From Vulcanimicrobiota bacterium (GTDB lineage: Bacteria; Vulcanimicrobiota; Vulcanimicrobiia; Vulcanimicrobiales; Vulcanimicrobiaceae), in assembly GCA_963714015.1 (NCBI GenBank), contig OY970223.1:2624001-2688000 (forward strand): a DNA stretch of 64,000 nt. The letters run 5' to 3'. Each line of letters begins with the position of its first letter. Positions within the stretch are counted from its first letter, which is position 1. Shown one piece after another: positions 3,336 to 21,356 of the stretch. The position numbers and the translations under genes were made by a program. Under the pieces are notes generated by a model. That model saw only the letters and a program-made list of their open reading frames with translations, had not been told where the DNA came from and ran no database searches.

Positions 3336-4304
3336 ATGCGTCGTATCGCCGTTCTTCTCGCAACCCTGGCCTTCGCAGCGTGCGGAGGCGGCGGCTCTTC
3401 ACCGATTCCTACCGTCACGCAACCGCCGACCACGCATAAGGTCAGCATCGGTGCGGGCTTTGCGAAGTCGAACATCAACCAGAGTCGCGGCCGCCGCACG
3501 GCGATGGACCGGGCACTCGATGTAAGCCTGCTCTCGCTGCCGCCGACGTATCAGATCGACGTTCCCGACCCGTACATCACCCAGCAGCCCGGCGAGACCG
3601 GTGCACCCTGGATATTCGTGTATCTGAACACCAGCGACGGGACCTTGGCTGGCCTCCCGAATCCGCTTCCGACTCCCGCATACGCGCAGACCGGACCCAG
3701 CATTCCGGTTTTGACGGTGAATCCGGCCCCGATGCCTACGCCCTCTACGGCTCCGGTGGAGCTCGGCTACGAGACGCTGGGACGGCCAACGCAGCCCGGC
3801 ATCATCGCAATCACTGCGTCGGCGCCGGTGAACGGCCAGACGCTGAGCGCGAACGTTACGATCGACGCGTACCCGGCCATGTGCATCATCGCGCCGAACA
3901 GCTATCAGAACGACGGTTGCGTTGCCGGCCTCTATTGGGACGCGGCCGGCGGCGAGCATACGACGACTGACACCACTCAAGCCGACGCGTACATGGTCCT
4001 CAACAGCGGCGGAACGACGTCGTTCGTTTTCAATAGCGGCGCGACGACGGTCGCCAGCTCAGACGGCCTCATTCCCATGACGAGCTGCCCGAGCGTCGCT
4101 GCAGGTCCCACGACGATTCCGAGCCTCGCGATCGATCAGACGGTCCCGGTTATCGCTTTCAAGACCGCAACCGGATTCTGCGTGAAATGGCAAGCCGACT
4201 CGTTCGATTCTGGCACCGGATCGGGCGGCGTGAACACCGGCAACATCGGCGAGGCGTACGGGATGTACCTCGTCTCGGATGCGAGCGGGAACTTCGCTTA
4301 CTAA
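3336..4304 (+). CDS. Secreted lipoprotein (moron)
   Basis: GAGG RBS; MRRIAVLLATLAFAAC lipobox followed by GGGGSS linker. Confidence 0.8.
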   Translation: MRRIAVLLATLAFAACGGGGSSPIPTVTQPPTTHKVSIGAGFAKSNINQSRGRRTAMDRALDVSLLSLPPTYQIDVPDPYITQQPGETGAPWIFVYLNTSDGTLAGLPNPLPTPAYAQTGPSIPVLTVNPAPMPTPSTAPVELGYETLGRPTQPGIIAITASAPVNGQTLSANVTIDAYPAMCIIAPNSYQNDGCVAGLYWDAAGGEHTTTDTTQADAYMVLNSGGTTSFVFNSGATTVASSDGLIPMTSCPSVAAGPTTIPSLAIDQTVPVIAFKTATGFCVKWQADSFDSGTGSGGVNTGNIGEAYGMYLVSDASGNFAY

Positions 4305-4399: not shown

Positions 4400-5953
4400 T
4401 TACGGCGTCAGAATCGCTGCCGCCCCAGGGGCAACGGTCGTGACCGCCGGTCCCTTTACGTCGATGCTGCCGCCGTCTAAGACGTCTGATCCGCTGATGA
4501 CGAGCGAATGATTCAACCCACTCGCGTACTGAATCGGCACCGATGACGCTCCGGGATTGACGGCGACCGCGCAGTGTCCGACGTACACTTGCCAGGCGTA
4601 GCAGGCGTTATAAAAGCGTTCGTACGCGCCACCACTGTAGTGATAGTTCGATACGTCGGAAGCGCGGTACGCGGGCTGCAGCGCCACGAAACCGGTTTCC
4701 GGGAAAACCTTTACCGTGCTCTTCGTTTGCAGCCATTCTTGAAAGATCGTGAAGTTCGGATCGTACGTCAGGAGAAACGATGCGTAAACGAACATCCGCT
4801 GCGCAATCGCTGCCGGCGAATCGGCTTGCTGCGTCGACCACGAGCCATCGGCGTACGCCCAGAACGTTCGGCCAGCCGCAATCGTGCTGATCTCCGTGTC
4901 TTCCGTTGCGATCCAATTCTGCGCGCCGTCGACGTAAGAGGCTTCGTACTCGCCCCCCGTTTCGGTGGACGCTGCGAGGCCAGCGATCTGATTCTGATAG
5001 GTCACGCCCGGCGGCGGATCTTCGTACGATTCCGGGGTGGAGAGCGTGTTCAAATAGAGTTGCGCGCCGTGCGTATTGATCCGCGAGAGCACCGATACGA
5101 CGAGCGCCGTCCACTGCGCGGGCGAAACGTACGAACACGGCTGCGCGTTGGCCTGATAGAGATTGTTCGCGTTATCGAAGAAGATCGCGTCCGGCTGCGT
5201 TCCCAGATACGCGTCGCGCGTGTCGACGATCCATTGCACGTACGCCACGGCATCGGGCTTTGAGAGGTCGGCAAAGTACCCGGTTCCGTGGTAGGTTTGC
5301 ACGGTTTGGCCGGTGCACGTTTTGGCTTCAATGTCGGGAAATTTCTTGAGCGCTGCGATCTCGATCCAATCTCCGCCGTTGGGCTCGAATGGGTCCTCGT
5401 ACGCAACGGTTTTGATGCCGGCGTTGTGCGTCGGAACATACTGCCCGCTGCACGCATAGTCGAAGGTGAGATACGGTGCGAGCTGCGCGGCCGTCTGCGG
5501 ATCGCAGTAATCCGCGGTCTGCACGTGCATGGGTACGTGCGTTGGGAGCGGCGAGGGGGAAATCGTGGGAAGCGGTGTCGGCGTTGGATTCGCCGTTGGG
5601 ATCGGCGTTGCGCTAGGAGTTGGACTCGCTGTCGGTGTTGCAGTCGGCACCGGGGAAGTAGAAGGCTCGGGCGTGGGCGACGGACCGATCGCTGAGGGAG
5701 TCGCGCTGGGCGTACTCGTCGACCGCGGCGATGACGTCGGCGTAGGTAACGGGCTTCGCGTTGGGATCGGCGTGAAGGAAGGTTGTACCGTCGGTGGTGG
5801 TGACGATGAGCGTCTGGGAGTGGGCCATGCCGTGGGTTTCGGCGAGGGAGACGATGTTACTTCCGCCGTTGGAATCGGCGAAGGCGTCGGATTCCCACCG
5901 TGACCGCATGACGAAAAAAGCGCCAGTATCACGGCGCCGATGAAAGCCTTCAT
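4400..5953 (-). CDS. Lipoprotein with Pro/Thr linker and putative glycoside hydrolase (TIM-barrel-like) domain
   Basis: Lipobox LFSSC; about 110 aa PT-rich linker; DAIFFDN and GGEYE acidic motifs typical of GH barrels. Confidence 0.65.
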   Translation of the reverse strand: MKAFIGAVILALFSSCGHGGNPTPSPIPTAEVTSSPSPKPTAWPTPRRSSSPPPTVQPSFTPIPTRSPLPTPTSSPRSTSTPSATPSAIGPSPTPEPSTSPVPTATPTASPTPSATPIPTANPTPTPLPTISPSPLPTHVPMHVQTADYCDPQTAAQLAPYLTFDYACSGQYVPTHNAGIKTVAYEDPFEPNGGDWIEIAALKKFPDIEAKTCTGQTVQTYHGTGYFADLSKPDAVAYVQWIVDTRDAYLGTQPDAIFFDNANNLYQANAQPCSYVSPAQWTALVVSVLSRINTHGAQLYLNTLSTPESYEDPPPGVTYQNQIAGLAASTETGGEYEASYVDGAQNWIATEDTEISTIAAGRTFWAYADGSWSTQQADSPAAIAQRMFVYASFLLTYDPNFTIFQEWLQTKSTVKVFPETGFVALQPAYRASDVSNYHYSGGAYERFYNACYAWQVYVGHCAVAVNPGASSVPIQYASGLNHSLVISGSDVLDGGSIDVKGPAVTTVAPGAAAILTP

Positions 5954-5963
5954 GGATGCTCCT

Positions 5964-7400
5964 CTAGGGCGTCGCCCAGGCGTGGAATGCGTCGTAGCGC
6001 GGATCGTTCACCCACGAACCGCTCGCGATGGAACCGAGTCCAATCGCGCTAAAGGGACCCCCGCCGTCGTCGCCGTCCCAAATCGACGCGTTCACGATGC
6101 ATGCGATCTGCGGGTCTTGCAGCGCAACGCCGTACGCAGCGGAGAGATCGTGAGCGGCGACTTGCGGATCGAGTCCGTACGCGCTCGTATCGCTTGCAAA
6201 TCCGGTTTCCGTCAGACAGATCGGCGGACGCTCACCGTTCTGCGCAGCGATCGCCTCAACGCCTTTGTAGTTCAGCCATTGATTCTCGTAGGTCAATCCC
6301 CAAGAGACGGACGGCGGCATCTGCCAGGCGAAATTGTGAACCGAAAGACCGTCCCAGCAGGCGCCGATCTTGCAGCCGGAAGCGTAGATATTCGTAAGAT
6401 CGGTGAACAAGTTCGTGTGATTGCCGCCGCCGTTTGCGAGGCCGGGGCCGTAGACGGTCAGACTCGGATCCGCTGCTTTCACGGCGGGGTAGCCCGCTTT
6501 GAGAAACGCTGCGATGCCGGCGCCGGTGTCTGAATCCATGAACCAATAACTTTGGTTTGGCTCGTTCATCAGCTCGACTTGCGCAATCTGCGGGAGACTT
6601 TGCTGGGCCATCTGCGCGTTGTGCGCGACGATCCAACGCGTCACGGTCGCCGCATACGTTCCGTAATCGGTAGCGTTCGCGAAAGCTTTGTTCATGCCGA
6701 TTGTCTGCTGAATCCGCGAACCGCCGTACTGCAAGATGATCGGGAACATCGCAATGCCGTGCTGCGCTAAATGCGTTGCGATGTAGTCGTACGCCGTCCA
6801 GTTGGCGTCTAGGCCGTTGAGATTGCCTTGCAAGCCGCCCCAGATGAATGAAGCCTGAATCTCCACCCGTGCGCACGTTGCACCGGCGTTCGCCGCGGCT
6901 TGTTCCGCTGAATCGATGAGCGTATTGGCCGGAACGTTCGGAAGGTTCTGGCACGGGTTGTGCGAGCAGTCGCGGATCGTCTGCTCCTCGAGCGTCCAGG
7001 TATGGCCCATGACGCAGTAGCGACCCTTCGGCGCCGGCGGATGCGAGACGGGCGGCATATAGACTTGCGCGGGCGTCGTGACGGTAAACGTTGCGCCGTT
7101 CGAAGAGACGACGTACGCGACGCCTGGCGTGCGGCGCCAGCGAATCGCGACGCTGTTTGCGCCCACTCCGCCGTAAGCGTAGACGGTTGCGGCAGGCGAA
7201 ACGCTCGCACTCGTTTGAACGGGTCCTGCTGCGAAGCGAAGCACGAGCGGCGTATCGTACGGCATGGTGCCGCCGTTCTGTATCGGATAGCAGAGGGTCG
7301 GCGTAATCGTGGTGCAGGCCGACTGAATCGCCGGTGAAGATTGCGCGGCCGGATGAGCAAGGTGCAGCGCGGTCAAGAGCGCGATGAAGAGATGCTTCAT
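5964..7400 (-). CDS. Secreted clan GH-A glycoside hydrolase (GH5/GH39-like)
   Basis: Signal peptide; ELMNEPN acid/base, WDGLSVH and ICLTETGF nucleophile motifs. Confidence 0.8.
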   Translation of the reverse strand: MKHLFIALLTALHLAHPAAQSSPAIQSACTTITPTLCYPIQNGGTMPYDTPLVLRFAAGPVQTSASVSPAATVYAYGGVGANSVAIRWRRTPGVAYVVSSNGATFTVTTPAQVYMPPVSHPPAPKGRYCVMGHTWTLEEQTIRDCSHNPCQNLPNVPANTLIDSAEQAAANAGATCARVEIQASFIWGGLQGNLNGLDANWTAYDYIATHLAQHGIAMFPIILQYGGSRIQQTIGMNKAFANATDYGTYAATVTRWIVAHNAQMAQQSLPQIAQVELMNEPNQSYWFMDSDTGAGIAAFLKAGYPAVKAADPSLTVYGPGLANGGGNHTNLFTDLTNIYASGCKIGACWDGLSVHNFAWQMPPSVSWGLTYENQWLNYKGVEAIAAQNGERPPICLTETGFASDTSAYGLDPQVAAHDLSAAYGVALQDPQIACIVNASIWDGDDGGGPFSAIGLGSIASGSWVNDPRYDAFHAWATP

Positions 7401-8329
7401 TGACCGATTGCCGCTCCAATCGGACCCTGCAATCCGGTGCTTACGCTATAACGCGCTTGCGTTGAGAAGTTCTCCACAATGACATCACCCGCGCCGTTGT
7501 GGCCGTCGCCCATCTGCGGCAGCACCATTTCTCCGGCAGCATCGCGCGTTGCATACGCGACGTAAAAATCATGGTTATCCAAAACATGCAGCAACGTGTA
7601 GTTCGGCCCGCCATATTCGGCGACAGGAATCGGGCACGGACCCGCTGCGTACAGATTGCCCGCAGCGTCGACGCTGAGCGAGAAAACCTGAACGCTCGCA
7701 CGCGCGAAGATCGAGCGATGCGTTCCCAAGAACGCGCCTACGGGATACTCGTACACCTCTTCGACCGCTTCGCACATAACGTACGTCGGCCACGCATCGC
7801 CGATGCCGGAAATCGACACGAACACGTCACCGGCGCTATCGACCGCAATACCGCGCGGCGCGTATCCTGTCGGCGTGTTGACACTTTTCAGGTAGGTCCC
7901 GTTCGAAGAGTACTCGACGATCTGACCGCCGGACGTGCCGTGTTGCCAGGAATCCGCAACGTACACGGTGCCGTCGCTTCCGACCGCGACGTTCATCGAA
8001 TGATGCAAGTTCCACCAGAAGCGATGGATGACCCAACGCGCACCGGAGGCGTATTCCATGACGCCGTTCAGCGTTGCGACGTACACGTGTCCTGCGGTAT
8101 CCGTTGTGACCCCGCCGACATTCGGCAAGCCGCGCACCGCTCGAAGCGGCGCAGCGTCATTCTGCCCGGCCGGATAGACCAAAAGCGCGTTTTGCGGGCG
8201 GTCGGCGACGTAAAGGTAACGCGCAGCGGGAGCGTTATGGACCGATTGGACGGAAACGGGCGTCGGAATGGAGGCACTTGCGCATCCGGAAATGACAATG
8301 CACGCGAGCAATGCTAGGGCAGATCGCAT
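7397..8329 (-). CDS. NHL-repeat lipoprotein (moron)
   Basis: MRSALALLACIVISGC lipobox; YLYVAD, PRGIAVDSAGDVFV repeats; same family as the host gene at 1559. Confidence 0.8.
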   Translation of the reverse strand: MRSALALLACIVISGCASASIPTPVSVQSVHNAPAARYLYVADRPQNALLVYPAGQNDAAPLRAVRGLPNVGGVTTDTAGHVYVATLNGVMEYASGARWVIHRFWWNLHHSMNVAVGSDGTVYVADSWQHGTSGGQIVEYSSNGTYLKSVNTPTGYAPRGIAVDSAGDVFVSISGIGDAWPTYVMCEAVEEVYEYPVGAFLGTHRSIFARASVQVFSLSVDAAGNLYAAGPCPIPVAEYGGPNYTLLHVLDNHDFYVAYATRDAAGEMVLPQMGDGHNGAGDVIVENFSTQARYSVSTGLQGPIGAAIGQ

Positions 8330-8365
8330 AGGAAAAAACCTCGTAAAGCGAAGGTGTAAGAACAG

Positions 8366-8411
8366 AAAAAGCCCCGCCGCAGCCCAATCCTTTGGGCCGA
8401 AGCGGGGCTTT
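8366..8411 (-). terminator. Intrinsic terminator at end of lysis/late operon
   Basis: aagccccgc...gcggggctt stem followed by TTTTTCTGTT on the minus strand. Confidence 0.7.
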
Positions 8412-8445
8412 GGTACATCCATGTTATGCCAGAGGCATACGTGAT

Positions 8446-8755
8446 CTACGGCGGCGAGTTTTGCCTGAAGATTCTTCAGGAACGCGATGCCTGCGGCGAC
8501 GAAAGCCGGCGCGCCTTGGGAGAGCGCGGCAGCGAGATTCGCCTCTTCCGATTGCAGCGCGCTGCCGACGATCGGCGAGAGCCACGCCGGAACGATCTTC
8601 TCGAGCGCCGCGTTGACGTTCGCCTCGGAGGGCGATGACCCGACAGCAGGAGCAACCGCTTCAACTTCGGCGATGATCGTCGCCTCGTTGGCTTGCGCTT
8701 CATTGGCGACAAAGCCGACAACGGCGGCTTCCAGTTTTTGAATGAAAGAACTCAA
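8446..8755 (-). CDS. Amphipathic hypothetical protein in lysis cassette
   Basis: TTG start after AAAGG. The apparent read-through into the terminator is probably a 1-nt error near 8450. Confidence 0.5.
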
Positions 8756-8817
8756 GATATGACCTTTCTGCAGAAATGGCAGCGCTGACCGGGCTGCGCG
8801 CGGTTTGCGAAGCAAAA

Positions 8818-9474
8818 TTAAAAAGCCGCACTAGGCGGCGTCTTTCTGTTTGAGCGCGACGACGGTTCCGGGCGTCGGCGGTGGCGGGGTAGTTCGAACG
8901 GTGCGCGGCATACCAAAGTACGCGGCGAGCACGGCCAACACCACGGTCCCGAATATCCAGACGAGCGCACCGACGAGCTGCGCGATCGGCGTCGCATCAG
9001 CAGGCATGAATTGGTGATGCCTGAGGTGGGAGAACGACCAATACAGCGAGATGAGATATTCCGGCTGACTGAGGAGTTTGAAAAGCGCGGCGACGGCACT
9101 GCATACCGACACGGCACCCGCGGCAAGGCCGATAAATCCGCAGCGATAGGTATTGAGGTTTTGCAGCATATCGTCCCCACCATGCGGTAGATGCGCACGC
9201 GCGTTACGCCTGAAAAGCGCAGATCATCGCGCACGACCGGTGAAACGTCGACAAGGTGCCCCGTCCATAGCGCCGGACCGTAATCCTCAACGACGCACCA
9301 CGATTCTGCGCCGTTAGCATCGTTGACGATCTGAATCCGCGTCCCGAACGGCACCAAATGCCGGGTTGCGCAGATGCGAGCGGCCGGATTAAATGGACGA
9401 CCGTCCGCCATGGTGCCGGGCTGGTTGTACCAGCTGGCAATGCCCATGGCGACGAACGCCCAGACCGGCGTCAC
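8818..9474 (-). CDS. RlpA-like (double-psi beta-barrel) lytic transglycosylase; domain within about 9170-9474
   Basis: GIASWY...FNP...AT...PFGTRI...VEDYGP...VDVS motif pattern. Confidence 0.8.
   Translation of the reverse strand: MTPVWAFVAMGIASWYNQPGTMADGRPFNPAARICATRHLVPFGTRIQIVNDANGAESWCVVEDYGPALWTGHLVDVSPVVRDDLRFSGVTRVRIYRMVGTICCKTSIPIAADLSALPRVPCRYAVPSPRFSNSSVSRNISSRCIGRSPTSGITNSCLLMRRRSRSSSVRSSGYSGPWCWPCSPRTLVCRAPFELPRHRRRPEPSSRSNRKTPPSAAF
8831..9169 (-). CDS. Two-TM membrane protein, holin candidate
   Basis: Two hydrophobic segments and a charged C-terminus; adjacent to murein hydrolases. Confidence 0.55.
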   Translation of the reverse strand: MLQNLNTYRCGFIGLAAGAVSVCSAVAALFKLLSQPEYLISLYWSFSHLRHHQFMPADATPIAQLVGALVWIFGTVVLAVLAAYFGMPRTVRTTPPPPTPGTVVALKQKDAA

Positions 9475-10166
9475 GTCGTCGCGAGGCGACGCTCTATCTC
9501 TATTTTATAGGCGTGCTCGCGTTGGCGCAGGGCGTTTCCCATGATCGACGGATCGATGTTCGCGTTGCTCATTCCATCCGGCAGCGGTACTTCCGTCGCC
9601 CAGTCCCAACGCTCGCCGGTCACGTAATAGTTTGCGTACTGTGGCGGATTGCCCGGATGATTCGCCGCTTCACCATGCGAAAACGAAATATGCTCCCCGG
9701 CATACGGACCATCCGCGGCGGTGCCGCTTAGGTCAATGTCGTACGCGCACGCGACAGCAGCGACGCCGGAGCACATCCAATCGGTCGTCGCGAGGGTGAT
9801 CGGCTCTGGTCCAAAGTTGTGCTCGTCGGCGAACGCCATATCATCCGTCGCGAACCCGAATGCTCCCGTGTTTCGCATATACGTGTGCGAGTGCTCGTCG
9901 TTGTCGTTCACGCCGATGGCGTTGTCTTGTGGGTTGCCGCAAACGTCGAAATAGAAGTGGCCGTTCGCGAAACGCAGCGCACCATTGTAATCGTTGAAAT
10001 CTTGGCCGTAATGCCCAACCGTCCAATGCCGGTAAATGCGCTTCAACGTACCGGGCGGACACGGATACTTCGACTTGAGCAGTTTTGCGTACTCGACGGC
10101 AGCGACTATCGCCGCCTCGGTCAAAGGCGCGGCAGGGTCGAAAGTTCCGAGCGGATTGAAGTCCAT
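9471..10166 (-). CDS. N-acetylmuramoyl-L-alanine amidase-like endolysin
   Basis: RIYRHWT, HTYMRNTG and SHGE zinc-amidase-like motifs; GGAG RBS. Confidence 0.7.
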   Translation of the reverse strand: MDFNPLGTFDPAAPLTEAAIVAAVEYAKLLKSKYPCPPGTLKRIYRHWTVGHYGQDFNDYNGALRFANGHFYFDVCGNPQDNAIGVNDNDEHSHTYMRNTGAFGFATDDMAFADEHNFGPEPITLATTDWMCSGVAAVACAYDIDLSGTAADGPYAGEHISFSHGEAANHPGNPPQYANYYVTGERWDWATEVPLPDGMSNANIDPSIMGNALRQREHAYKIEIERRLATT

Positions 10167-10170
10167 GTGA

Positions 10171-10593
10171 TTACTCCCCAGGTCTATAAAAAGAGCCCCC
10201 TTGACGGAGGCTTTCTTGTAGTGCTTCTTCGAGTTCGGCCGGTATCGGTGGGAGTCCGGATTCACCGCCTCCGCTGCGCACGTGCCCAATGACTGATCCG
10301 ATGTAAACGATAGCCGAAGCGAATTGACGCTTCATACTCCGCATTTCGTCGCACATCTGCTCGACCGCCGCTTTCCAGCCCTCGGAACTCAATCGGTAGG
10401 CGTCAGCTGCTGCGCGTGCTTCTCGCTCGCGTTGCAGGGCGGAGTCGCGCTCGCTCAGTGCGATCGCTGCTTCGTGCGCAAGGTGAACCCTGTCGCGAAA
10501 TACGGGTATGCCGCGGATAACGCCATACATTGCCGTTAATGCGGCGACGAGTTCAGCAACGGCGGTAATGAGCGGCACGAGCTGAATGTGCAT
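10171..10593 (-). CDS. N-terminal TM plus coiled-coil protein (holin/spanin-like)
   Basis: One TM then a coiled coil; immediately upstream of the endolysin. Confidence 0.55.
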   Translation of the reverse strand: MHIQLVPLITAVAELVAALTAMYGVIRGIPVFRDRVHLAHEAAIALSERDSALQREREARAAADAYRLSSEGWKAAVEQMCDEMRSMKRQFASAIVYIGSVIGHVRSGGGESGLPPIPAELEEALQESLRQGGSFYRPGE

Positions 10594-10682: not shown

Positions 10683-11507
10683 TTAGTTGGAAACCTCGAT
10701 GTGAGTGACGCGTCCGCCGGCCGAAACCGATCCGGTAGTCGGACCGAGGCAGCCATGGACGTTTTGGCTGTAGTACGAATAGTTGACGGTCTGGTATGCA
10801 ACCGCCGCGGCGACGTAGTAGACGCCCGACGAGGGAACGGTGCCCCCTTTGCTGGTCGGATTCCACTGATTCGTCGTCGTGTTCTGTTGTTCGATGACCT
10901 GACCGCCGCTCGCGTTGAGTAGTTCGATAGTCGTCGAACCGGTCGCCGTCGATGTCAGCCGCGTGGTACACGAACTCGTCGAGTAGTAGGTCGTCGAGGC
11001 CGTCTGCGGCTCGGAATCGAACGAGACCGTGACGTGTGTCCCGCCGATAATCGTGGCGCCGTCGTTTACCGCCTGCTCGATCGTAAAGCCGGATGTGGTT
11101 CCGTACGCGTCTTGCGCACCGCTCGGCGGCGAATTCGGGTCTTGCGTGGCGCTATAGGAAACCGAACCCGCCTGCACGGTCCAGTTGAGCGATCCCTGAA
11201 TCAGCCACGGATCGTCATCCGGTTGAATCGTCGTCGAGTTGACGGCGCAGGATTCAGCAGCGCTCAGGCCCATCATCGCATTCGACGGAGATCCCGAGCA
11301 CGCGCCGTTATTTTGAACGTACGTTTCGAAGTCGCTGACGGACACGGCTTGAAGCGAACCGTTCCACGATGACTGCGCACTGCTTTTCCACGTGAACAGC
11401 GAGCCGATGTGCGAGTAGACGTACCCGCGGCTAAAGCCCTGGTCTGACGCCAGCAGCGCGACCGCTGCGATCGCGCAAAGCAGCGCGCGCGCTAGCGGCG
11501 AACGCAT
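10683..11507 (-). CDS. Signal-peptide-bearing beta-rich protein at end of tail module
   Basis: MRSPLARALLCAIAAVALLA signal; Ser/Thr-rich mature part with 4 Cys; overlaps the fibre gene's stop. Confidence 0.7.
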   Translation of the reverse strand: MRSPLARALLCAIAAVALLASDQGFSRGYVYSHIGSLFTWKSSAQSSWNGSLQAVSVSDFETYVQNNGACSGSPSNAMMGLSAAESCAVNSTTIQPDDDPWLIQGSLNWTVQAGSVSYSATQDPNSPPSGAQDAYGTTSGFTIEQAVNDGATIIGGTHVTVSFDSEPQTASTTYYSTSSCTTRLTSTATGSTTIELLNASGGQVIEQQNTTTNQWNPTSKGGTVPSSGVYYVAAAVAYQTVNYSYYSQNVHGCLGPTTGSVSAGGRVTHIEVSN

Positions 11508-13654
11508 GAGGGAACCTTGCGGTTCTGCGGCAAGGCGCACAGGCCGCGAACCATCTTTACGAGTCCGTCGATCTCGCGTTGCTCCTTCAGAATTGCGAGC
11601 GCGTCGACGGTCGAGAGCGCGGCAGCATCGAAGTGATCGTGATGCGCACCGGAGAGCACCGAGGGCGTATCGTTGGCAATGAATCCGTAGCGCTCGGTCT
11701 TGCCGCCGTCGCCGTAGCCTTTCCGATACCGGTATTGTTTGAAGTCCGTCTTCATCAGCACGTCGAGCGGGTCGAACGTGATCGGCATAATGTCGTGTTT
11801 CCACTCACGCCGCGACGGGAAGAGGAAGTTCGAGGCATAGACGCTGCCGCCGACTCCGACGTTGCTCGAGTTATCGACACAGACGCGCCAGGCGATCGCA
11901 GACTGGGCGATTCCCGCGGTGGTGCAGGGAATGCCCTGAAGCGTTACCGCCGAGCCCGGGGCGCCGAACTGCGCAAGGCCGTTGACGACAAGATTGTTGT
12001 TGCCCAGAATGTTCAGCGGACCGTTCACGTTCGAACCCGTCGGACCGTAGGACGACGATCCGGCGACGACCGCGCCGCTGCTATTGAGCGTCAGGCCGCC
12101 GTTGATCGTTGCACTCGCCGGGCCGTACGTCGACGACCCCGCCAAATACGATCCTTGGATCTTCACGCTGCCGCCGTGCTGCAGTTGCACTTCGTTGACG
12201 CCGCCGACCTGATAGTCCGCGATGTCGCCCGTCGGCGAGGACGCGTTGCTGGCATTCCACGTGAACGGTACGGCTGAACCGGTTGCATTTGAGGCAATGG
12301 TTGCGCCGCTAGTGCTCGAAAACGCGAAGGGAGACGCAGCAGAAAACGTCTGCAGTCCGGCGAAGGTCTGAGGGCCGCTCGTCTGGGCGCACGCCCCGGA
12401 AATCGTTCCGAGCGATGACGTGGACGTCGCCTGCACGCAGAAGCCGTTCGTAAAGCCGCTGAACAGGTTCGTCAGCCCAGAGCCATTGCCGACGAAGGAC
12501 GCGGCCGTCACCGTTCCCGCGGGCGAGACGCTGAATTGCGTCGCACCATTGTACTGGAACTTCGAGTTGCCGCTACTATCGACGGCAAAGTTCCAGGTAT
12601 TCGTCTGCGGCGCGCTGCCCGTCCAAGACGACGACTGCAGTTGGAACCCGCCGACTGACCCGTAATTCTGAGACGACGTCGCAACGCCGGCTGGCGTGAT
12701 TTGACTGTTTCCCGCCCAGGCCGCGCTGTTGGCTGAAATCGATGTGAACGACGGCGTATGCGAAACGTCGACGACGTAGTTCGATCCCGAAGGCGTGACA
12801 CTGACGTTCGCGTCGCCCGCCGAGACCGTCGTCGGCGAACCGCCGGACGTGTTGCATCCGCCGCTCACAAGTTGCGCATTCGCATCGAAGAAGGCACAGG
12901 TCGCCGGCGAGACGCCCGCGTTCCCGATCTGTGCCCAGCCGTGGTTCCACCCGGGCGCCATCGTAATGTTCGAGGACGTGATGCTGGTCTGGCCGTTGGC
13001 GACCGCTACCCACCCGAGCGCGACATAGCCGCTATCCGCCGTCGGCTGCGTCGGTGATGTGCCGGCGGTTCCGGCTTTGGCGACGATCGAGATGAGATCT
13101 GACCGTTGCTGCGCGACGTTGAAGGGCGACGGATTGCCCAGGTTATCGAGAAAGGTGCGGCTCGCGAGATTGTGATCGAGTGGCGGCTGCACCTGCGCTT
13201 CGATGAGGTAGTACATCGAATAACCGGAGGTGGTCGGCGCCGTGAGCGGCCCGATCGGCGCGGTCGCCGAGCTGATGAAGGCCGGAACGGCGATCTTGGT
13301 TGGATCGGCGGGCAACGCGTCCGGGTCTGCCGTCGGTGTCGCTTGCGGCATCGGATTCGGATCGTCCGCAACCTGTTGATAAACTGCGCCGTTCGTTGAA
13401 CCGGCGGTAGGCGCAACCGTCACGTTCAGGCCGCTGCCGGGGCTTATCGTAAGATCCGCGTACGTGCCGGTTAAGCCGGCATGCAGCATCATGGTGCCGA
13501 TCAGAATGCGGGTGTCGCGCTCTTGCTGATTATAGTCCTGGTCGTTCGGCTGCAGACCCCAATAGTAGATCTGGCGATCGCCCGCGCGCGCCGGCAGCAT
13601 AACGAGTTGAGACAATAAAAACGCTGCAAGCACAGCGCATAGCACTCGACGCAT
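11492..13654 (-). CDS. Tail fibre with C-terminal peptidase S74 intramolecular chaperone and N-terminal signal peptide
   Basis: GGGAG RBS; fibre N-domain DRQIYY...APTTSGYSMYYLIEA...VANGQTSITSSNI; C-terminal PSRREWKHDI...YGFIAND. Confidence 0.85.
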   Translation of the reverse strand: MRRVLCAVLAAFLLSQLVMLPARAGDRQIYYWGLQPNDQDYNQQERDTRILIGTMMLHAGLTGTYADLTISPGSGLNVTVAPTAGSTNGAVYQQVADDPNPMPQATPTADPDALPADPTKIAVPAFISSATAPIGPLTAPTTSGYSMYYLIEAQVQPPLDHNLASRTFLDNLGNPSPFNVAQQRSDLISIVAKAGTAGTSPTQPTADSGYVALGWVAVANGQTSITSSNITMAPGWNHGWAQIGNAGVSPATCAFFDANAQLVSGGCNTSGGSPTTVSAGDANVSVTPSGSNYVVDVSHTPSFTSISANSAAWAGNSQITPAGVATSSQNYGSVGGFQLQSSSWTGSAPQTNTWNFAVDSSGNSKFQYNGATQFSVSPAGTVTAASFVGNGSGLTNLFSGFTNGFCVQATSTSSLGTISGACAQTSGPQTFAGLQTFSAASPFAFSSTSGATIASNATGSAVPFTWNASNASSPTGDIADYQVGGVNEVQLQHGGSVKIQGSYLAGSSTYGPASATINGGLTLNSSGAVVAGSSSYGPTGSNVNGPLNILGNNNLVVNGLAQFGAPGSAVTLQGIPCTTAGIAQSAIAWRVCVDNSSNVGVGGSVYASNFLFPSRREWKHDIMPITFDPLDVLMKTDFKQYRYRKGYGDGGKTERYGFIANDTPSVLSGAHHDHFDAAALSTVDALAILKEQREIDGLVKMVRGLCALPQNRKVPSCVRR

Positions 13655-13662
13655 GTTTCTCC

Positions 13663-15264
13663 CTAGCCCGGCTGCATCGCCGTGATGACGGCCTCGGAAA
13701 TGTTGTTGTTCGAATCGATCGGCGCCCAACCAAAGAGCGTAAGCGAACCGCCGTACGGGTTGGAACCACCCTCGCTTCCGAGATAGTAGGGCAGACCCAT
13801 CGAAGTCGGATTGTAGACCAGATCGACGGTCACTTCGCCCGCGGGCAGATTCGCGCCGACACTGTTCGAGTTTCCGCCTGCATTGCCGACGAAGGCGCCG
13901 TTGACGTACACGCCGACCGATGCAACGCCCAGAGCGTGGAACGTAATATTGGCTCCGGCAGCAAGCGTCAGAATCGTGCGATAGCCGATTGAGAAAGGCT
14001 CGCCGTAAACGGTGTCTGCGCCGATCTTGATGCTGCCGTCGAGCGAGAGGGACTTGCCCCAATTCGTACCATTCCCCGGACGCGCGTAGCCGCCGCCTGC
14101 AAGGAACGTCACCGTGAAGGGCATACTGCGCGGCGGCGGATTCTTCAGCGCTACGCTCGTCGTCGCGCCGTCGGTAACCTCGAAGTCCGTGGAGAAGTCG
14201 AGCTCGAGCGCGCCAGCATAGCCGTTGAGGGTGGTCACGCCCTCGTTATCAAACGCAAAAGTGCCCGACGAGACGCGACGCACGTGGACGCCATTGCCGT
14301 CCTCGAGCGTGAAGGCTTCCGGACCATCGCCGTTGATCGTCGCGGCCGCCGGAGGCGCCGGAACGTTAATCTTGATCGTTTGCGCGTCTTGCGATGTAAC
14401 CGCCGCAACACCGCCGCCCTCGATGACGACCGATCCGGATTTGCCGTTCACACTGGTTTGTGCTTGCGCCGGCGGGGCGTTGATCTGAATGGTGCCCGCT
14501 TCCGGCTCGGTTACGGTTACCTGGCCGTCACCCTGAAACGTGAAGATCGGGCCGTTCTGATTGTTGATGACCGTTTCCGGGACGGTAATGTCGATCTGCT
14601 CGGGATTCCCCGAATCGACCGCAACCGTGGCCGCGCCCTTGCCGGCGAGTAATACCGATCCGCCCACGCCGTTGAGCGACGTTACGGGCGAGCTATCCGT
14701 TCCGGTGATGCACTTGCGCACGTCGGGAAAGATCATCGTGATATCCGCTTGCGTGATACCGGTCGCATTCGCTGGAACGGTAATACGAGCGAGTTCCACG
14801 TAGCCGGCCGGCGGCGTTTCGCTGCCTTCGACGTACTGCAGTGTTATCGTGTTAGCGTCGAGCGGAATGACCTGATCGGTCTTCGACCCGTCGATAGCCT
14901 CGACTTCGCGTGTAATCGTATCGCCGTCCGGAACCTGCGGCGTCGCCTGGATCGCGATGGAATCAGTGCGTTGCGCCGGCCCCGAACCCGGGCACTGCAG
15001 TTGCGTTGCAGGACAGTTGTCGCACCAATTCCCCTCCACGAACACGCGTTGGTTCGCGCCGCCGACCGTGACCTGAAACGACCCGTTTGCCGTAATCTGC
15101 AGCGGATCCATGGCAGGCAGGGCATTCATAACGCCAAGGACCGCTGCGAGGATCTCTTGCGATCGGTTGCGCGCAGCCTGCGCTTCCGAGAGCATATCCG
15201 CAGACTGGACGAGCTCGCCGTCCTCGAATGCGACGTTCTCGGTGTTGGAAAAATCCGAACTCAT
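13663..15264 (-). CDS. Tail fibre/baseplate-attached fibre protein (no signal peptide)
   Basis: RTDSIAI and PPAGYVELARITVPANATGITQADI motifs; repeated V-T-S-x-N-G-x-x-G shaft units. Confidence 0.8.
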   Translation of the reverse strand: MSSDFSNTENVAFEDGELVQSADMLSEAQAARNRSQEILAAVLGVMNALPAMDPLQITANGSFQVTVGGANQRVFVEGNWCDNCPATQLQCPGSGPAQRTDSIAIQATPQVPDGDTITREVEAIDGSKTDQVIPLDANTITLQYVEGSETPPAGYVELARITVPANATGITQADITMIFPDVRKCITGTDSSPVTSLNGVGGSVLLAGKGAATVAVDSGNPEQIDITVPETVINNQNGPIFTFQGDGQVTVTEPEAGTIQINAPPAQAQTSVNGKSGSVVIEGGGVAAVTSQDAQTIKINVPAPPAAATINGDGPEAFTLEDGNGVHVRRVSSGTFAFDNEGVTTLNGYAGALELDFSTDFEVTDGATTSVALKNPPPRSMPFTVTFLAGGGYARPGNGTNWGKSLSLDGSIKIGADTVYGEPFSIGYRTILTLAAGANITFHALGVASVGVYVNGAFVGNAGGNSNSVGANLPAGEVTVDLVYNPTSMGLPYYLGSEGGSNPYGGSLTLFGWAPIDSNNNISEAVITAMQPG

Positions 15265-15273
15265 ACGTGTCCT

Positions 15274-16386
15274 TTAGGTGGAACGCAAGATGTAGACGGG
15301 GCGCACGCCGCCCGCTTTGATGCGACGCACAACGATGTCCAGGTTGGGGTCCGGCGCGGCTCCCGGCCCGAACTTGGTCGAGTCGAAGACCTGCGCCGCG
15401 TGGCCCAGGATCGTTTCCCGTCCAAGATGCGCAAAATCGGCATAGAACGCCGAGTCGTCAGTCGCCCACTCAATGACGATCGCGACCTGGCCGTAGGTAA
15501 TGTTGAACGCCGCGGCTGACGTCGGGTCGCTCTGCGTGTCGAACACGTAAATATTGGGGACAAGTAACTGCTCAGATGACGGTTGGAAGACGGCTAAACC
15601 GCCGCGCGTACCGATACCGCCCATCGTTCCGAGTGAAAGGTCTTGCAGCACCTTATTGGCCGTGACTGCCTCGGCCGCAAGATAGTAATTCACGGCGCCG
15701 GTGAGAATCGCTTGAAGCGTTTGCAGCTTCATCCCGAGCCGCTTGCGAATTCGCAGGGAATACGCAGCATCGTTCCCGGCTTCCGACGGCAACCGCTGCA
15801 TTTCCGTGCCGTAGATATCATTCGCGGTCAGGTCGAGGTTGTTATCGCTGCGAGTTGCCCAGCGCGTCTGGTTCTTCGTATACGGAATTTCGAGCGAGGC
15901 AATGTACCCAAAGCCGCTCGCAATACCGAACGCCATCGCGTACAGTAGCCCGGTCGTCGACGGATCGCCCGTATCGGTGCGCGCCGCATCGGTAAACCAC
16001 CGCTTTGGGATCAGCGCCATGATCCGCTGCGTAAATTCGGCTTGCGTGTACGGTAAAGGCGGCGGCGGCGGCGGCTCAACCGGCTGCTGCGTCTGCTCCT
16101 GAACGGGGACCAACACGCGAATCGTTTGATTCGTTCCCGTGCCGATGAAGGTGGTCGTTCCGGAGGGAGCGTTGGCGCCCGAAAACGTCACGTCGTACAG
16201 GACGTTTTGCCCGGCGTACATCTCGATCGTACCGCCGGCTGCGAGAATGGCGGTCTGAACGAACTCGTCGCCCTGCTGGATAATCGTCGCCGTCAGACCA
16301 GCCGCCAGCGGCGTACCGGTCTGATCGACGAAAGTCACTTCTACTTGCTGGGATACGCTTTCGCCAAGCAGCAAGAGAAGCGACAT
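15274..16386 (-). CDS. Baseplate wedge protein with N-terminal extra domain
   Basis: EFTQRIMALIPKRWF, LDLTANDIYG and AYSLRIR motifs; position between baseplate J and fibres. Confidence 0.65.
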   Translation of the reverse strand: MSLLLLLGESVSQQVEVTFVDQTGTPLAAGLTATIIQQGDEFVQTAILAAGGTIEMYAGQNVLYDVTFSGANAPSGTTTFIGTGTNQTIRVLVPVQEQTQQPVEPPPPPPLPYTQAEFTQRIMALIPKRWFTDAARTDTGDPSTTGLLYAMAFGIASGFGYIASLEIPYTKNQTRWATRSDNNLDLTANDIYGTEMQRLPSEAGNDAAYSLRIRKRLGMKLQTLQAILTGAVNYYLAAEAVTANKVLQDLSLGTMGGIGTRGGLAVFQPSSEQLLVPNIYVFDTQSDPTSAAAFNITYGQVAIVIEWATDDSAFYADFAHLGRETILGHAAQVFDSTKFGPGAAPDPNLDIVVRRIKAGGVRPVYILRST

Positions 16387-16400
16387 GTATGCTCCTTGGG

Positions 16401-19400
16401 CTAGTGAACGACGAGCAGGACTTGGCCGTCGTACAACACTTGCGAATTGCTGGTGATGTCCGAAAGCGACTTCGAGTAGTCGAACGTGCCGCCGTTCGGG
16501 ACGTCCTGACCGCTCGATCCGTTACAGACCGCAGCCGTTCCGTAGCCGAGTGATCCGCTCTGCGGCATCGCGTAGATCGGCGCACCGGACCCCGATCCCC
16601 AATAGGTCGAAAGCGGCGTGCACGGCACCAAGACGTGACCGAGACGCGAGTAGGTATGCGGCGCCCAGCCCGAAAGGTTCGAGGCACTGACGACTCGCGA
16701 TGCGCCAGATCCGTTGATGACAACGAGCAGCGGACCGCGGTCCTGAGCGCATGCGAACCACTGCCGCCGGTCGAATGCCGTGCAGCTGCCGCTTCCGGTC
16801 ACATCGAACACCCAGAGATGCTCGAACTCGAAGCAATACAGCCCGGTGATGCCGTTGCAGAGGATGTTCGAATCGTACGATCCGCCGACCGCGCACTTGA
16901 CGTTCGTACCGTTGTACGGAGACGAACCCTCGCCACACGGCTTCTGCCCAGAGGCGCCAGTCGGATCTGCCGGCATGGGCGTATCGCGTCCTGACGGCAT
17001 AACGAAATCGAATGGCCAGACGTCCATGCAGTTCGGGGAGAGTCCAGCGCTGCCGAAGCCGCACATATCCGAGAACTCGGATAACATAACGGGTGCGTCG
17101 TCCGAGAAAAGGCCAAGAATCGGGGCGTATTCCCACAGTTGATTCTGCTGGTGAATGCCGGTCCCGAGCGAACTCGTTGACGTCCCCTGAATCTCGTCCG
17201 ACTGATCGGCAAGGAACATCGCGGCGATCTGCGTGTTGATGCCGGTCTTGACCGTTTCTTGATAGAGCGCAGCGATATTGTTGATCGCGCTGTGCATCCC
17301 CTGATCGACGCCAATACCGCTCTTGAGTCTGCTGAGCGACCGGGCCGTTATAGGGCAGCGGTTGAGGCGTCGGGCACGTCACGCCGTCGCACCCAACGAG
17401 CGTTTCTTCGTCAACTCCGAAGCGCGTGTTCGCGTTTTGGTTGACCGCTTGCGAAGTGTTCTGCAACCCGTTATAGGTCACGTTCATCGCCGATCCGTTC
17501 TGATGCTGCAATCCACCAAGGAAAGCGGCCAGCGCGGTCTCGTACGACGTGTCAGACGGGAACGTCAGCGGTCTATCGTTGCTCGTCAGGAGCGTCGTGC
17601 GCGTGTGGTACGTGCCATTGAAAAACGCGCTCGGATTGAACGATGTGCCGCTCGCGCCAGAGGTTGGGTCTGCGTACGGAGATGACGAGCCGGTTCCGAA
17701 GTTTTTGCCGCCTTGGTACGACCCGTCCCATATATCCCAGCCCGCGGATTCCAGGCCGATGAAGGCGTTGTCTTTGAATACCGAGGCGATCGCGTCGAAC
17801 GGTTGGGTTGACGCATTGCTGTCGTGCTTGCAATTCGCAATCACGTCGTTCGTGAACGCGAGCAGGCTAGCCGATCCGAGGTTCAGGTAGAGGTAGTATC
17901 GAGACGATCCGTCGATTCCCCAGCCCATATAGTCGACGTTTCCGGTCGTGCCGCCGTTGACGTAGATAAACCAATTGTTCGCGCCGGTCGACGTGTAGTC
18001 GGGAATCGTGTACGGAGTTCCGGCCAGCGTGACGCTGGTTTGCTGATCCCAGAAGTTGCCGCTGCTGATCGTCGCCGCGGCGTCGCACGTGCGCGATCCG
18101 TTATTGAGATATGAGCCGTGGAACGGGAAGTCGACGTCGTGTCCGTTCGCGTCGGGTTGCCCCAAGCCGGACTCCATGTAGTATTCCCAGCCATTTGCAA
18201 AGTTCCAGCGGCCGGGGCCCGGGCACGTCGTGGGCCAGAGGTTGTTACTGTTCGCGGTCGATCCGATGCACAGATCGTCGTATTGCGCGATCTGCGCGGA
18301 CGTCGCGGTCATGTTCGAATTTACGCCCTCAGACGAGAGCTCGCCGAACCAGGCCATTTCATCGCGTAACGGCGGCGGTGTCGCCGCAGGTGGCGTCGGT
18401 GTGGGCGTCGGGGTGGGCGTCGGTGTCGGAGCCGGCGTCGGGGTTGCGTAAAACGAGCCCGAGAAGCGCGCGGTCTGCGACATGGTGATGAACTCGGATA
18501 AGCCGTTCGCATCGAAGATCCAGTCGCGATCGCATTTCGGGTAGTTCGACCAGGACTCGAATGTGCTGAAGACCTGCGTCTTCGGAAAGTCGAGCGGCAT
18601 GTACGTCATCGCATCGGAGTACCACTGCGCTTGCGTGTTCAGCCCGGCGACGTAGCCGGTGCAGTTCGGGTCCGCCGTGACGTTCGCGCTGTTTTCAGCA
18701 CTCTCGATCCAGCCCTCGGGGAGATCCGGGTACCGGCTGGTCATGTAATTGTAGTACACTCTGGTAGGTGTTCACGAGGCCGTTCGCGTTGCCGACGTCG
18801 TACTGATCGTCGCCGATCATGTCAACGTCGTACGACCCGTCGATAGGCGCTGCGCACTCGAGCACGTAGCAGGTTTTCGGAAAGAAATTCTCGGTAAGCG
18901 ACGGGTTGCCGCCGGTAGGATTCCACAGCCACATAATGTTCGTGGCCCCGTCGATGTAGACGGAACGATAGTAGACGTACTCGTACCAGGCTTGAAAGAG
19001 TTCGCCCTTTTGAGCGTCGGTCGGAGCCATGCCGGTCGCTGGCCAGATTGCGGGAAAGTCGTAGATGGAGTCGTTATTGCTGCACTTCGCTGAACTCAGG
19101 CACTGATCGAATTCGTGAAACGGTCGCGCGTAAATCGGACCCGGATAGGCTTTCATACGCTGCGCGAATGCGTCGATGTAGCTGTCCCACTTCTCGTAGC
19201 ACTGCGTAGACGAATTTGGATTCGTTGCGCACGATGGCGGCGGAGCGGGGAAGCCGAGCGACTCCGCAACCGCTGCCGGTAAATAGCTTGCGAGCGATTC
19301 TGCCGACGACGTCGGGAGCCCAGCACTCCAAGAGACAATCGGCGTACGCTTGAGGGCTATAGAAGCGATGATGCGCGGATCGATGGGAGCGCCGACCGGT

Positions 19401-19735
19401 CCCCAAACCTTTGAGCCCGAATTCACGAAGTAGGTGGGCGAGCCGTAAATGAGATCGATCGGCAGCGAATGCCCCACGAGCGTTTCGAGCGTCTCTTGGT
19501 TGTTCTCTTGGATCTGCGCACCGCTCAAGATCAGACCGGTGGGCTTCGGTGACGGGCTGGATGCCGCGCGGAAAAAGCCACCGACCAGAATTTGGCCCGA
19601 GGGGAGCGGCGTCGGGTGCGGGTACGGCGTCGGAGGGTGGCCGACGAATGGCCACGTGCCGTACGTTTGCTGCGCGCTAGCAATACCGCTCAAAGCGGCA
19701 AGCAAAAATACGGCCGCGAGGGCGCTTCGAAGCAT
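16401..19735 (-). CDS. About 1100-aa secreted two-domain glycanase (GH26-like plus second GH-like barrel), split by two frameshifts
   Basis: Signal MLRSALAAVFLLAALSGIASA; GH26-type ARPFHE, WLWNP, VDMIGDDQYD and WIES motifs; PT linker; second domain with SVFKDN. Frames join near 18765 and 17330. Confidence 0.7.
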
Positions 19736-19743
19736 TCCTACAC

Positions 19744-21356
19744 CTAACGTGAGCTGAATTGCGTGCCGATGATGTTGATGTTTATCGTCGCCACGGAGGC
19801 AGACGATCCGAAACAGAGCCCGTCGCCGATTACGGTGCGGAAGATCTCGCTGTTTGCCATGTGCAGCACGACGTTGCCTCCCGCGGGAACCAGGATCGGC
19901 GCGCCGATCGCGACGGCAACGCCTGAGCCGCCGCAATTCGCGCCGGTCCCCTCATAGGCTTGAACGGAGACTGCCGTCGCGCTGGTGTTGGACAAAGTGA
20001 GCGCCGAAACGCGCACTGCGGCGCCGGTTTGCTCGGTAACGCCTTTGATGCAGCTCGTCGTACTATTCAGCACGACCGGGCACATCGAGCCCTGGGAAAC
20101 GGACGTTGTGCACATCGACAAGCCGTTGTAATCGTTGTCCGCGAAGAGCCCGGCAACGTCCGGAGCGCCCATGGTGCCCTTGGAGTCGGCGAGGCCGGTT
20201 ACCGTGGGCGTGTTCTTGATCGCGGTCCAAGCATAGCCGTTACCGTAGCCAGAAAGCGGCGAGATGGACCATGCAACCGTCGGCGTTCCGGAAAGCGCTC
20301 CCGCTGCGCGCACGCGAATCCAGCCGGCACCGGTTACGTTGAGTTGGTAGACGCCGTTGGCGCTGGCAAAGTAGTTCGGGGTGTTCGACACGGGACTCTG
20401 CAACCCGAGCTGAATCCCAAAACCTGAGACCCAGCCGCCATTCGAGCCGTTCGTCGAATCGACGCTGCGTTCGTAGTAAAGATTTCCGGACGTCAGGCCG
20501 CTAATGCGCAGATCGACTTGACCGCACGCACCAGGGCAGTAAAACGCGGCGTACGAGTCTGCAGTCGGCGCCGTCGTATTGACGTTTCCATTGCCGAACA
20601 TCGCCGGACCGGCGCTGTCGGTAACCAAGATTTGCGCGCTCGAGGGAGCGGGACTCGCTTGGGCTACGAACTGATTGCCGGACGTGTCGCAGCGCGTAGA
20701 GTACGCTGTTCCGCCGTTGGCCGTGACGGGCGACGTCACGGTGGGGCAGTAAGGCTGCGTGTTGACGCCGTTGCCGGGATTAGACGTCGCGGCAGGTACG
20801 GGCGGAGGCGGCGTTATGACGGCAACGGGACCGTTCGACCCGTTGATGTTCACATTGACGTCGCCGGCCGGGTCGAACGAGAACGGCAGTCCGCCGCTAT
20901 AGCGCGGTGAGCAAAGGATCGTAATCGATCCGGTACCCACGTTCGTCACGCTCAGATCGAAATAGCGCGCGCCGTTGAGTGCAAAGATGTACTGTCCGTT
21001 CGCGGTGAGCGAACTTCCCACGGTGGGCCCCTGGACATAGATGCCATTTGCCGCTTGCGGTTTCGCGTTCAGCGAATCGAATGCCAGATACGACGTAACT
21101 GCCGTCGTTCCGTCGAAACCCTCCAGATCGCAGCCGAGTGCGTGTACGCATGGATTCCGCCGTCGAACGTGTACGAGTACGTGTTCGGCGCGGGCGTCGC
21201 GGTGGCGGGAAACGTCGTCGGGGTGGGCGCCGGAATGACGTGCTGCACCTGCGAGTACGTGGTCTGTGCCTGCGTCGGAGCCAAGAAACAAAACAGCGCC
21301 ACGAGGGCGCCGAACGTTCCGATTCCATACTTGAGTAGAGAGCGTTTTAACGCCAT
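19744..21356 (-). CDS. Secreted Cys-rich multi-beta-sandwich protein, one frameshift near 21140
   Basis: Signal ...GALVALFCFLAPTQA; an internal domain resembles the protein at 43706. Confidence 0.65.

Follow-up and report, generated by a model that had tools for sequence, protein, structure and literature searches.

A gene at 11492-13654 on the minus strand of a 64,000-nucleotide stretch of a Vulcanimicrobiota bacterium genome (assembly GCA_963714015.1, contig OY970223.1, positions 2,624,001 to 2,688,000; this whole stretch is called the window) probably encodes a secretory precursor of a receptor-binding tail fibre and belongs to a myovirus-type prophage of a diderm host. Judging from its sequence, export, cleavage and oxidative folding of the fibre are very likely, and the fibre very probably folds in the periplasm, not in the cytoplasm. 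New here are two sister clades of fibres that share the anchor domain, the gene position and the length of the mature N-terminus, of which only one has a leader and paired cysteines.

Start codon and leader of the window fibre

The fibre gene runs from ATG 13654 to a stop at 11492 and its product has 720 amino acids (aa). The TAG stop of the upstream gene is located at 13665-13663, and its last base is the first G of a Shine-Dalgarno-like GGGAG (13659-13663, minus strand), which is followed by the 4-nt spacer AAAC and the ATG. Since the host 16S rRNA 3' end is CCTCC, the anti-Shine-Dalgarno, pairing with GGGAG is expected. An earlier note on this DNA, made from the letters alone, had described a good ribosome-binding site here, and its description stands; the open reading frame (ORF), start, leader, Cys pairs and Peptidase_S74 (S74) motif that it listed were likewise all located as claimed.

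The translated N-terminus reads MRRVLCAVLAAFLLSQLVMLPARA followed by GDRQIYY, and the leader, ending in ARA, comprises aa 1-24 (13583-13654, minus strand). For a Sec leader cut by signal peptidase I, a positive n-region, a hydrophobic h-region of 10-17 residues and small residues at positions -3 and -1 were required. By our own rule the fibre leader fits all of them, with MRR as n-region, VLCAVLAAFLLSQLVML as h-region, PARA as c-region and A22-R-A24 before the predicted cut after A24. Its Kyte-Doolittle 10-residue maximum, 3.05, is the top value among 30 ORFs scanned. The same scan found a leader-like N-terminus in none of the 16 long ORFs between the terminase and Baseplate_J genes, where the highest 10-residue mean was 2.40, at a doubtful GTG start. 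The fibre as a lipoprotein (signal peptidase II) was also considered and rejected, as position +1 is Gly25, the sole leader Cys is C6 and there is no lipobox.

A 7-bp GC-rich hairpin followed by TTTTATT lies at 13621-13638 (minus strand), in the leader-coding part between ATG 13654 and the internal ATG of Met19. The region has 21 terminator-like sites vs 15.5 expected, and this hairpin may be there by chance, or it may lower expression of the fibre compared with that of the upstream gene.

Distribution of the leader in the fibre family

The mature N-domain only (aa 25-260) was searched against 1.84 billion representative proteins, giving 541 matches at E <= 1e-3 and 116 at E <= 1e-10. The best 150 of the 541 matches were pooled with the proteins of a prior search, minus the public record of the window fibre (P0002), to give a family set of 158 proteins. 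A leader was called where at least 14 residues precede the D of the DR motif and the 10-residue Kyte-Doolittle mean is at least 2.2. According to their N-termini, the relatives can be divided into 3 groups. A leader with n-, h- and c-regions, ending small-x-small beside an [DN]R motif, is present in 110 of the 158, and this is the upstream hydrophobic segment whose absence from homologues would, according to the earlier note, have refuted its reading. Another 39 have an M-DR start, with at most 8 residues before the motif, as the earlier note had stated for myovirus fibres beginning MDR.I.Y; they include a fibre of the cultured Ralstonia phage Raharianne. The remaining 9 are fragments or carry another, non-hydrophobic extension. 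The ratio of 110 to 39 is biased to the kin of the query, as only the best 150 of 541 matches were taken. Nearly all matches with E < 1e-12 align at an offset of 22-30 residues, and weaker matches align from residue 2.

The leaderless starts are real, because many copies on viral contigs of IMG/VR have an in-frame stop 0-6 codons upstream of MDR and because Raharianne gp49, which begins MTDR, is preceded by a non-coding gap. The leader-bearing relatives form 110 clusters that are mutually < 50% identical. Their leaders have a median length of 24 aa, two K/R within the first 8 residues in 85 of 110, and A (83), S (16) or G (11) at position -1. A small-x-small site is present in every one of the 110 leaders, and in 106 it lies within -1 to +2 residues of the D/N. 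In 70 of the 110, a single residue would remain before [DN]R after the cut, the same length as in M-DR. This register supports the proposal of the earlier note that cleavage after ARA would regenerate the N-terminus of the leaderless fibres. Judged on its conservation, the leader is a family trait and not a start-codon artefact.

These data also bear on where translation begins. The public record (P0002, 702 aa; 11492-13600, minus strand) starts at Met19, so that the leader is dropped; it can be seen that the leaders of such proteins can be hidden by automatic gene calls. A crude caller based on GC content at third codon positions (GC3) chose Met19 as well. Both calls would agree with an ordinary cytoplasmic fibre of 702 aa, or with a leader that is not used. 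Upstream of ATG 13600, however, no purine-rich or Shine-Dalgarno-like motif is present, as against the GGGAG before ATG 13654, and only 3 of the 110 leaders have Met at the position equivalent to M19, with 76 of 110 lacking any internal Met. Translation from this internal Met, the one in VMLPARA, would have refuted the reading of the earlier note; the comparison goes in favour of ATG 13654. Conservation of the leader over 110 such divergent clusters argues in the same direction. An internal start at Met19 was thus rejected, on the missing motif and the unconserved Met, and a cytoplasmic fibre of this kind is very improbable.

Export through the Tat pathway after folding in the cytoplasm would be suggested by the leader beginning MRR, with Arg-Arg at positions 2-3. 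The Tat consensus is S/T-R-R-x-F-L-K, which is absent from the fibre leader. Moreover, RR occurs in the first 10 residues of only 9 of the 110 relatives, most n-regions contain K, the median leader is short, and the paired cysteines described below argue for folding after export. As the consensus is neither complete here nor conserved in the family, a Tat signal peptide was rejected, and this route has hardly any probability.

The leader could also remain uncleaved and hold the fibre at the inner membrane, either as a signal anchor or like a signal-arrest-release (SAR) domain, until depolarisation at lysis sets it free. Such a tether would be a built-in timing device, for which phage SAR endolysins are a precedent, and cleavage is here predicted only. 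Nevertheless, SAR domains are rich in Gly, Ala and Ser, and the h-region of the fibre is strongly hydrophobic and rich in Leu, Val and Phe; furthermore, a small-x-small site in all leaders, in register with DR in nearly all, is sensible only if it is used. The SAR-type reading was rejected on these motif grounds and is improbable.

Members of the leader clade were also sought in other collections. A search of genome contigs gave one locus, and a search of metagenome contigs gave 3 loci, two of which are copies of loci already in hand (L004 and L005). No matches were found in 200 other genomes sampled from the host phylum. The genome collection contains a single relative, a Vulcanimicrobiota metagenome-assembled genome (G201) with two leader-bearing fibre genes of this family on two contigs (L002 and L055). 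A search of the ESM Atlas reached a best score of 0.85, which is a lead only.

Origin of the leader

A FastTree tree was built from 149 N-domains (110 leader-bearing and 39 leaderless, the 9 others omitted). On this tree the leader label requires 3 changes, fewer than in any of 500 shuffles (mean 34.7). One branch with a Shimodaira-Hasegawa-like support of 100 separates the 110 leader proteins, together with P0064 and P0075, from 37 leaderless proteins. P0064 and P0075 start at an M directly ahead of the motif and may be late start calls or secondary losses. The leader clade is of single origin, and the window protein sits in the sister clade of the leaderless fibres of gp49 type.

Cysteine parity and the export machinery of the host

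Paired cysteines are characteristic of proteins folded in an oxidising compartment outside the cytoplasm. Within the leader clade, 99 of 110 mature parts have an even Cys count (binomial p 7e-19) vs 17 of the 38 leaderless proteins with any Cys (Fisher p 5e-8), and the median Cys content is 1.74% vs 0.78% (Mann-Whitney p 3e-9); the rows being related, these p-values overstate. None of the mature parts in the leader clade is free of Cys, and short and long gaps between the cysteines alternate, as for sequential local pairs. Most of these cysteines fall in the distal parts, which are not shared. In one subclade an invariant pair is placed within the anchor domain (C155/C191 of P0042, in the 12 leader-clade proteins of alignment A3), and these columns hold Ala or Val in the window protein and in the leaderless clade. 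The Cys parity gives independent support to the Cys-pair idea of the earlier note, and an ordinary cytoplasmic fibre would leave it unexplained.

The window fibre itself contains C6 in the leader and the local pairs 253/267, 406/422, 577/592 and 706/717. The first three pairs of this mature part are those which had been noticed from the sequence before; the fourth, which sits in the chaperone tail, was absent from that list.

The host encodes Omp85, VKOR and S26 signal peptidases, the last with five matches, and thus possesses a periplasm and the machinery for Sec export and signal peptidase I. The Peptidase_S26 matches are located in the same genome at C1:1291042-1292957 and 396434-396928, four of them in one cluster, of which one has an in-frame TGA.

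Anchor domain, shaft and chaperone

The mature N-terminal anchor domain (about aa 25-235; 12950-13582, minus strand) begins with G-D-R-Q-I-Y-Y. In an AlphaFold2 model of mature residues 1-276, the predicted local distance difference test score (pLDDT) exceeds 90 over most of residues 1-210. According to this model, the domain is of the 'shoulder'-type fold of receptor-binding proteins (RBPs). In VIA-align comparisons, the HFTV1 tail fibre had Z 8.7, the HFTV1 baseplate and BPP-1 Mtd Z 8.3, the RBPs of lactococcal phages 1358 and p2 Z 7.5 and 7.4, SPP1 gp22 Z 7.3, the cyanophage A-1(L) fibre Z 7.1 and TssK Z 5.6 to 4.7; a Z near 8 is the stated limit of the tool, so that little more than a shared arrangement should be read from these values. 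Among the individual chains, 9h5b_BG gave Z 8.7 with 146 residues aligned and a root-mean-square deviation (rmsd) of 6.4, 1yu0_A gave Z 8.3 with 102 residues and rmsd 2.7, and 4l92 and 2wzp gave Z 7.5 and 7.4. The top 11 rows are all phage RBP anchors or TssK, and unrelated rows do not rise above Z 3.7. Foldseek with the anchor model found no PDB entry at E <= 1e-3, and a sequence search of the PDB, with the profile and with the protein, found no solved chain. In BFVD there were 11 matches at E <= 1e-3, every one a phage protein.

The N-domain is common to 143 of 157 relatives, and any match beyond aa 260 was seen in 17 of the 157. Receptor-binding proteins bound to the virion show this pattern, in which the anchor is conserved and the distal parts are exchanged. 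Behind the anchor, the window fibre has a shaft and distal part rich in Ser, Ala, Gly and Thr (aa 236-613; 11816-12949, minus strand), which contains the pairs 253/267, 406/422 and 577/592.

The C-terminus (aa 614-720; 11495-11815, minus strand) is a Peptidase_S74 intramolecular chaperone with S614, K619 and the Cys pair 706/717. PF13884 Peptidase_S74 matches aa 616-667 with E 1.4e-6 and 28.9 bits, the Pfam cut-off being 22. We take from work on endosialidases that the catalytic Ser and Lys stand five residues apart at the start of the S74 domain. The PSRREWK motif, where the earlier note had seen the S74 Ser/Lys pair, contains S614 and K619, and 9 of 10 aligned C-terminal ends of relatives have the same S-x4-K spacing, which confirms that claim. 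By analogy with endosialidase-type chaperones, the S74 chaperone is predicted to cleave itself at S614. The earlier reading of a fibre processed at both ends outside the cytoplasm is supported through the leaders of the homologues, their register and the Cys parity, with the cut at the C-terminus a prediction.

Gene position and the case for a virion protein

The window contains a phage structural module on one strand, with terminase, portal, scaffold, major head protein, tape measure and Baseplate_J genes. Past Baseplate_J the order is a gpI-like gene, a 533-aa fibre-like gene, the fibre, P0160 and an endolysin-like gene. As the window lies inside a single 3.56-Mb contig, the module belongs to a prophage. 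The Baseplate J gene (21854-23071, minus strand; PF04865 E 1.8e-17; phrog_6, baseplate wedge, E 3e-26) marks the tail module of the fibre. The gpI-like baseplate wedge gene (370 aa; 15274-16386, minus strand; phrog_26379) is beside Baseplate_J in related loci and corresponds to L004 7426-8421 (BLASTP E 5e-20) and L053 8731-9891 (hhalign with A6, 99.9%). The upstream fibre-like gene (13663-15264, minus strand) is leaderless and has an N-domain (aa 7-177) paralogous to the anchor domain: hhalign of the two N-domain profiles (A7 vs A5) gave a probability of 97.9% and E 3.7e-13. This profile-profile run superseded BLASTP and a first hhalign, in which only a weak motif match to the fibre was seen. 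The upstream protein has no similarity to Raharianne gp48, and its AlphaFold2 model, from a 5-row alignment, has pLDDT 45.

In 8 of 8 leader-clade loci with context (the window, L004, L005, L048 and L051-L054), the leader-clade gene is found 1-3 genes past the baseplate genes. In the loci scanned against Pfam, namely the window, L004 and L051-L054, Baseplate_J was confirmed. In the window, L004, L005, L048 and L051, a leaderless fibre-like gene (about 500 aa) separates the gpI-like gene from the leader fibre. In L052, L053 and L054, the leader fibre follows the gpI-like gene immediately, and tblastn found no leaderless paralog in the available DNA of these loci. Three lines, namely fold, modularity and position, point to the fibre being a virion part, which is the likelier case.

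The leader and Cys parity indicate export only, and an exported and cleaved protein could stay free in the periplasm or on the cell surface as a receptor mask, exclusion factor or adhesin. The T5 Llp lipoprotein, for example, masks or occupies the receptor on lysing cells and debris, which spares the progeny. The leaderless paralog directly upstream, with the same anchor domain, could then be the virion fibre, and the same module holds other leader-bearing ORFs that are not fibre-like. Yet the anchor is the most conserved part of the family, with its N-terminus restored to the residue, and a decoy has no such need. Its fold is that of baseplate anchors, the gene stands head-to-tail with baseplate and fibre genes, and L052-L054 have a leader fibre without a leaderless paralog found beside the gpI-like gene. 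A free protein is therefore possible and rather unlikely.

Proposed maturation and assembly

For a tail fibre made as a secretory precursor, the following path is proposed. Translation would begin at ATG 13654, and the 24-residue Sec leader would carry the chain over the inner membrane. Signal peptidase I would then cleave after Ala24 and leave G-D-R-Q-I-Y-Y, an N-terminus as in the leaderless relatives after Met1. In the oxidising periplasm the disulfides 253-267, 406-422, 577-592 and 706-717 would form, and trimerisation would be aided by the C-terminal S74 chaperone, followed by its self-cut at Ser614. Through its shoulder-type N-domain the trimer would finally join the baseplate wedge of particles built in the cytoplasm, no earlier than the opening of the inner membrane by the holin, or else in the lysate. 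Fibres can be added last to finished particles, as in T4 in-vitro complementation, and such late docking is for this reason physically plausible. Export, the two cuts, disulfide formation and, most of all, when and where the fibre meets the particle are inferred; docking of the exported trimer on the baseplate, after the holin breaches the inner membrane or in the lysate, is somewhat favoured by us.

Several points weigh against this account. Particles are built in the cytoplasm, which is a topological problem for an exported fibre, and late joining is assumed. A leaderless paralog is present directly upstream in the window prophage and in 4 of 7 other loci, and could be the real virion fibre. 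No leader-clade member was found among the cultured phages of the phage collection searched. The leaders were called by our own hydrophobicity and small-x-small rule, and the Shine-Dalgarno spacer of the fibre gene is short, at 4 nt. The Cys count is odd in 11 of the 110 mature parts, Pfam DSBA was not found in the host, and the biased 110:39 ratio given above belongs here as well. The genome is a closed contig, yet scores only 89.6% complete, and the coding frame by GC3 jumps at ~21100, ~18750 and ~17300; these frame changes may reflect a decaying or defective prophage, or assembly indels.

The account can be extended from the window fibre to its relatives. There is about an even chance that, in a whole clade of tailed phages, virions are completed outside the cytoplasm, with fibre-less particles that wait and Sec-exported fibres, cut back to the ancestral N-terminus and locked by disulfides in the periplasm, that join at holin opening. 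Within this extension, the trait would have arisen once, by a leader added before the old start, and been kept across >100 clusters. The exported fibre may there stand beside its cytoplasmic paralog on the same wedge, by analogy with TssG and its two TssK trimers.

Comparison with known systems

The closest known counterpart is Raharianne gp49 (NC_054955, annotated as hypothetical protein). Its N-domain is homologous to that of the window fibre (BLASTP E 8e-13, with window D26 aligned to gp49 D3), and its gene has the same position, after baseplate genes of V, J and I type and before lysis genes. Fibres of gp49 type are modular with a variable distal part, as the window fibre is. They differ in being leaderless, with about half the Cys content and no parity, and the window precursor has 24 extra residues; its N-terminus agrees with M-DR only after the predicted cleavage. 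Raharianne is a myovirus by electron microscopy (PMC7940629).

The window fibre shares with S74 tailspikes and fibres (endosialidase type, PF13884) the C-terminal domain and the S-x4-K dyad. The S74 examples known to us fold and cut themselves in the cytoplasm, whereas the S74 domain of the window fibre forms part of a protein made with a secretion leader and includes a Cys pair, 706/717. With the shoulder-type anchors (p2 and 1358 RBPs, HFTV1 fibre, BPP-1 Mtd) the N-domain fold is shared at Z 8.7 to 7.1, and with TssK of type VI secretion at Z 5.6. To our knowledge, none of these shoulder-type anchor proteins has been described with a leader.

The coat proteins g3p and g8p of filamentous (Ff) phages are another parallel, in that the host-recognition protein has a Sec leader and periplasmic disulfides. 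However, Ff phages assemble at the membrane during extrusion, have no cytoplasmic head or tail, and show no homology to the fibre. SAR endolysins, spanins and T5 Llp are products of late genes of tailed phages that are exported through the host Sec system, but their roles are in lysis or exclusion; none is a virion part or has the fibre architecture. Passages of PMC5723332, PMC3556154 and PMC13001222 deal with annotation methods, endolysins or spanins, and SAR endolysins are mentioned in PMC3556154. Full-text literature searches, which did not cover subscription journals, gave no description of leader-bearing or Sec-exported fibres of tailed phages.

In the textbook view, tailed phages assemble wholly in the cytoplasm. 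If the proposed path is true, a receptor-binding fibre matured in the periplasm adds a compartment and a late joining step to tailed-phage assembly. It would also explain how phages come to use disulfide-stabilised fibres, possibly of help in harsh soils and peat. Annotation would be affected too, as gene callers can drop such leaders, and so would phage engineering, where fibres of this kind made in the cytoplasm should then misfold. Sister clades with and without the leader are an unusually clean natural comparison and make the question directly testable.

Other genes in and around the module

The gene after the fibre, P0160 (10683-11507, minus strand), encodes a Ser/Thr-rich protein of 274 aa from an ATG that overlaps the final codons of the fibre gene. 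Its N-terminus has the leader MRSPLARALLCAIAAVALLA followed by SDQG, and there are 4 Cys in the mature part. In Pfam no family was above the cut-off, the only match being a sub-threshold CHU_C, and no counterpart follows the fibre in L004 or L005. The endolysin-like gene (9471-10265, minus strand; phrog_5867, endolysin, E 6.4e-13) opens the lysis region after the fibre genes. In L004, a Phage_lysozyme gene comes after the leader-bearing fibre.

The segment separating Baseplate_J from the gpI-like gene contains, at 16401-21356 (minus strand), two leader-bearing, Cys-rich frames, one starting at 21356 (MALKRSLL...TQA, then QT) and one at 19735 (MLRSAL...ASA, then QQ). They have no Pfam families, and look like frameshifted genes, assembly indels or pseudogenes. 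In two viral contigs, L053 (6080-8731) and L054 (5341-8628), leader proteins of 883 and 1095 aa with 23 and 32 Cys stand immediately behind Baseplate_J and ahead of the gpI-like gene, indicating that leaders in these phages are not limited to one fibre. The leader-bearing ORFs at 16401-21356 have no similarity to the 883-aa protein of L053.

No tRNA genes were found in the window. Past the lysis region, lipoprotein- or Sec-type N-termini were observed at 1559-2581 (plus strand), 3336-4304 (plus), 4400-5953 (minus), 5964-7400 (minus) and 7397-8815 (minus). Some genes of this run contain NHL/SBBP beta-propeller repeats and may belong to the prophage or to the host.

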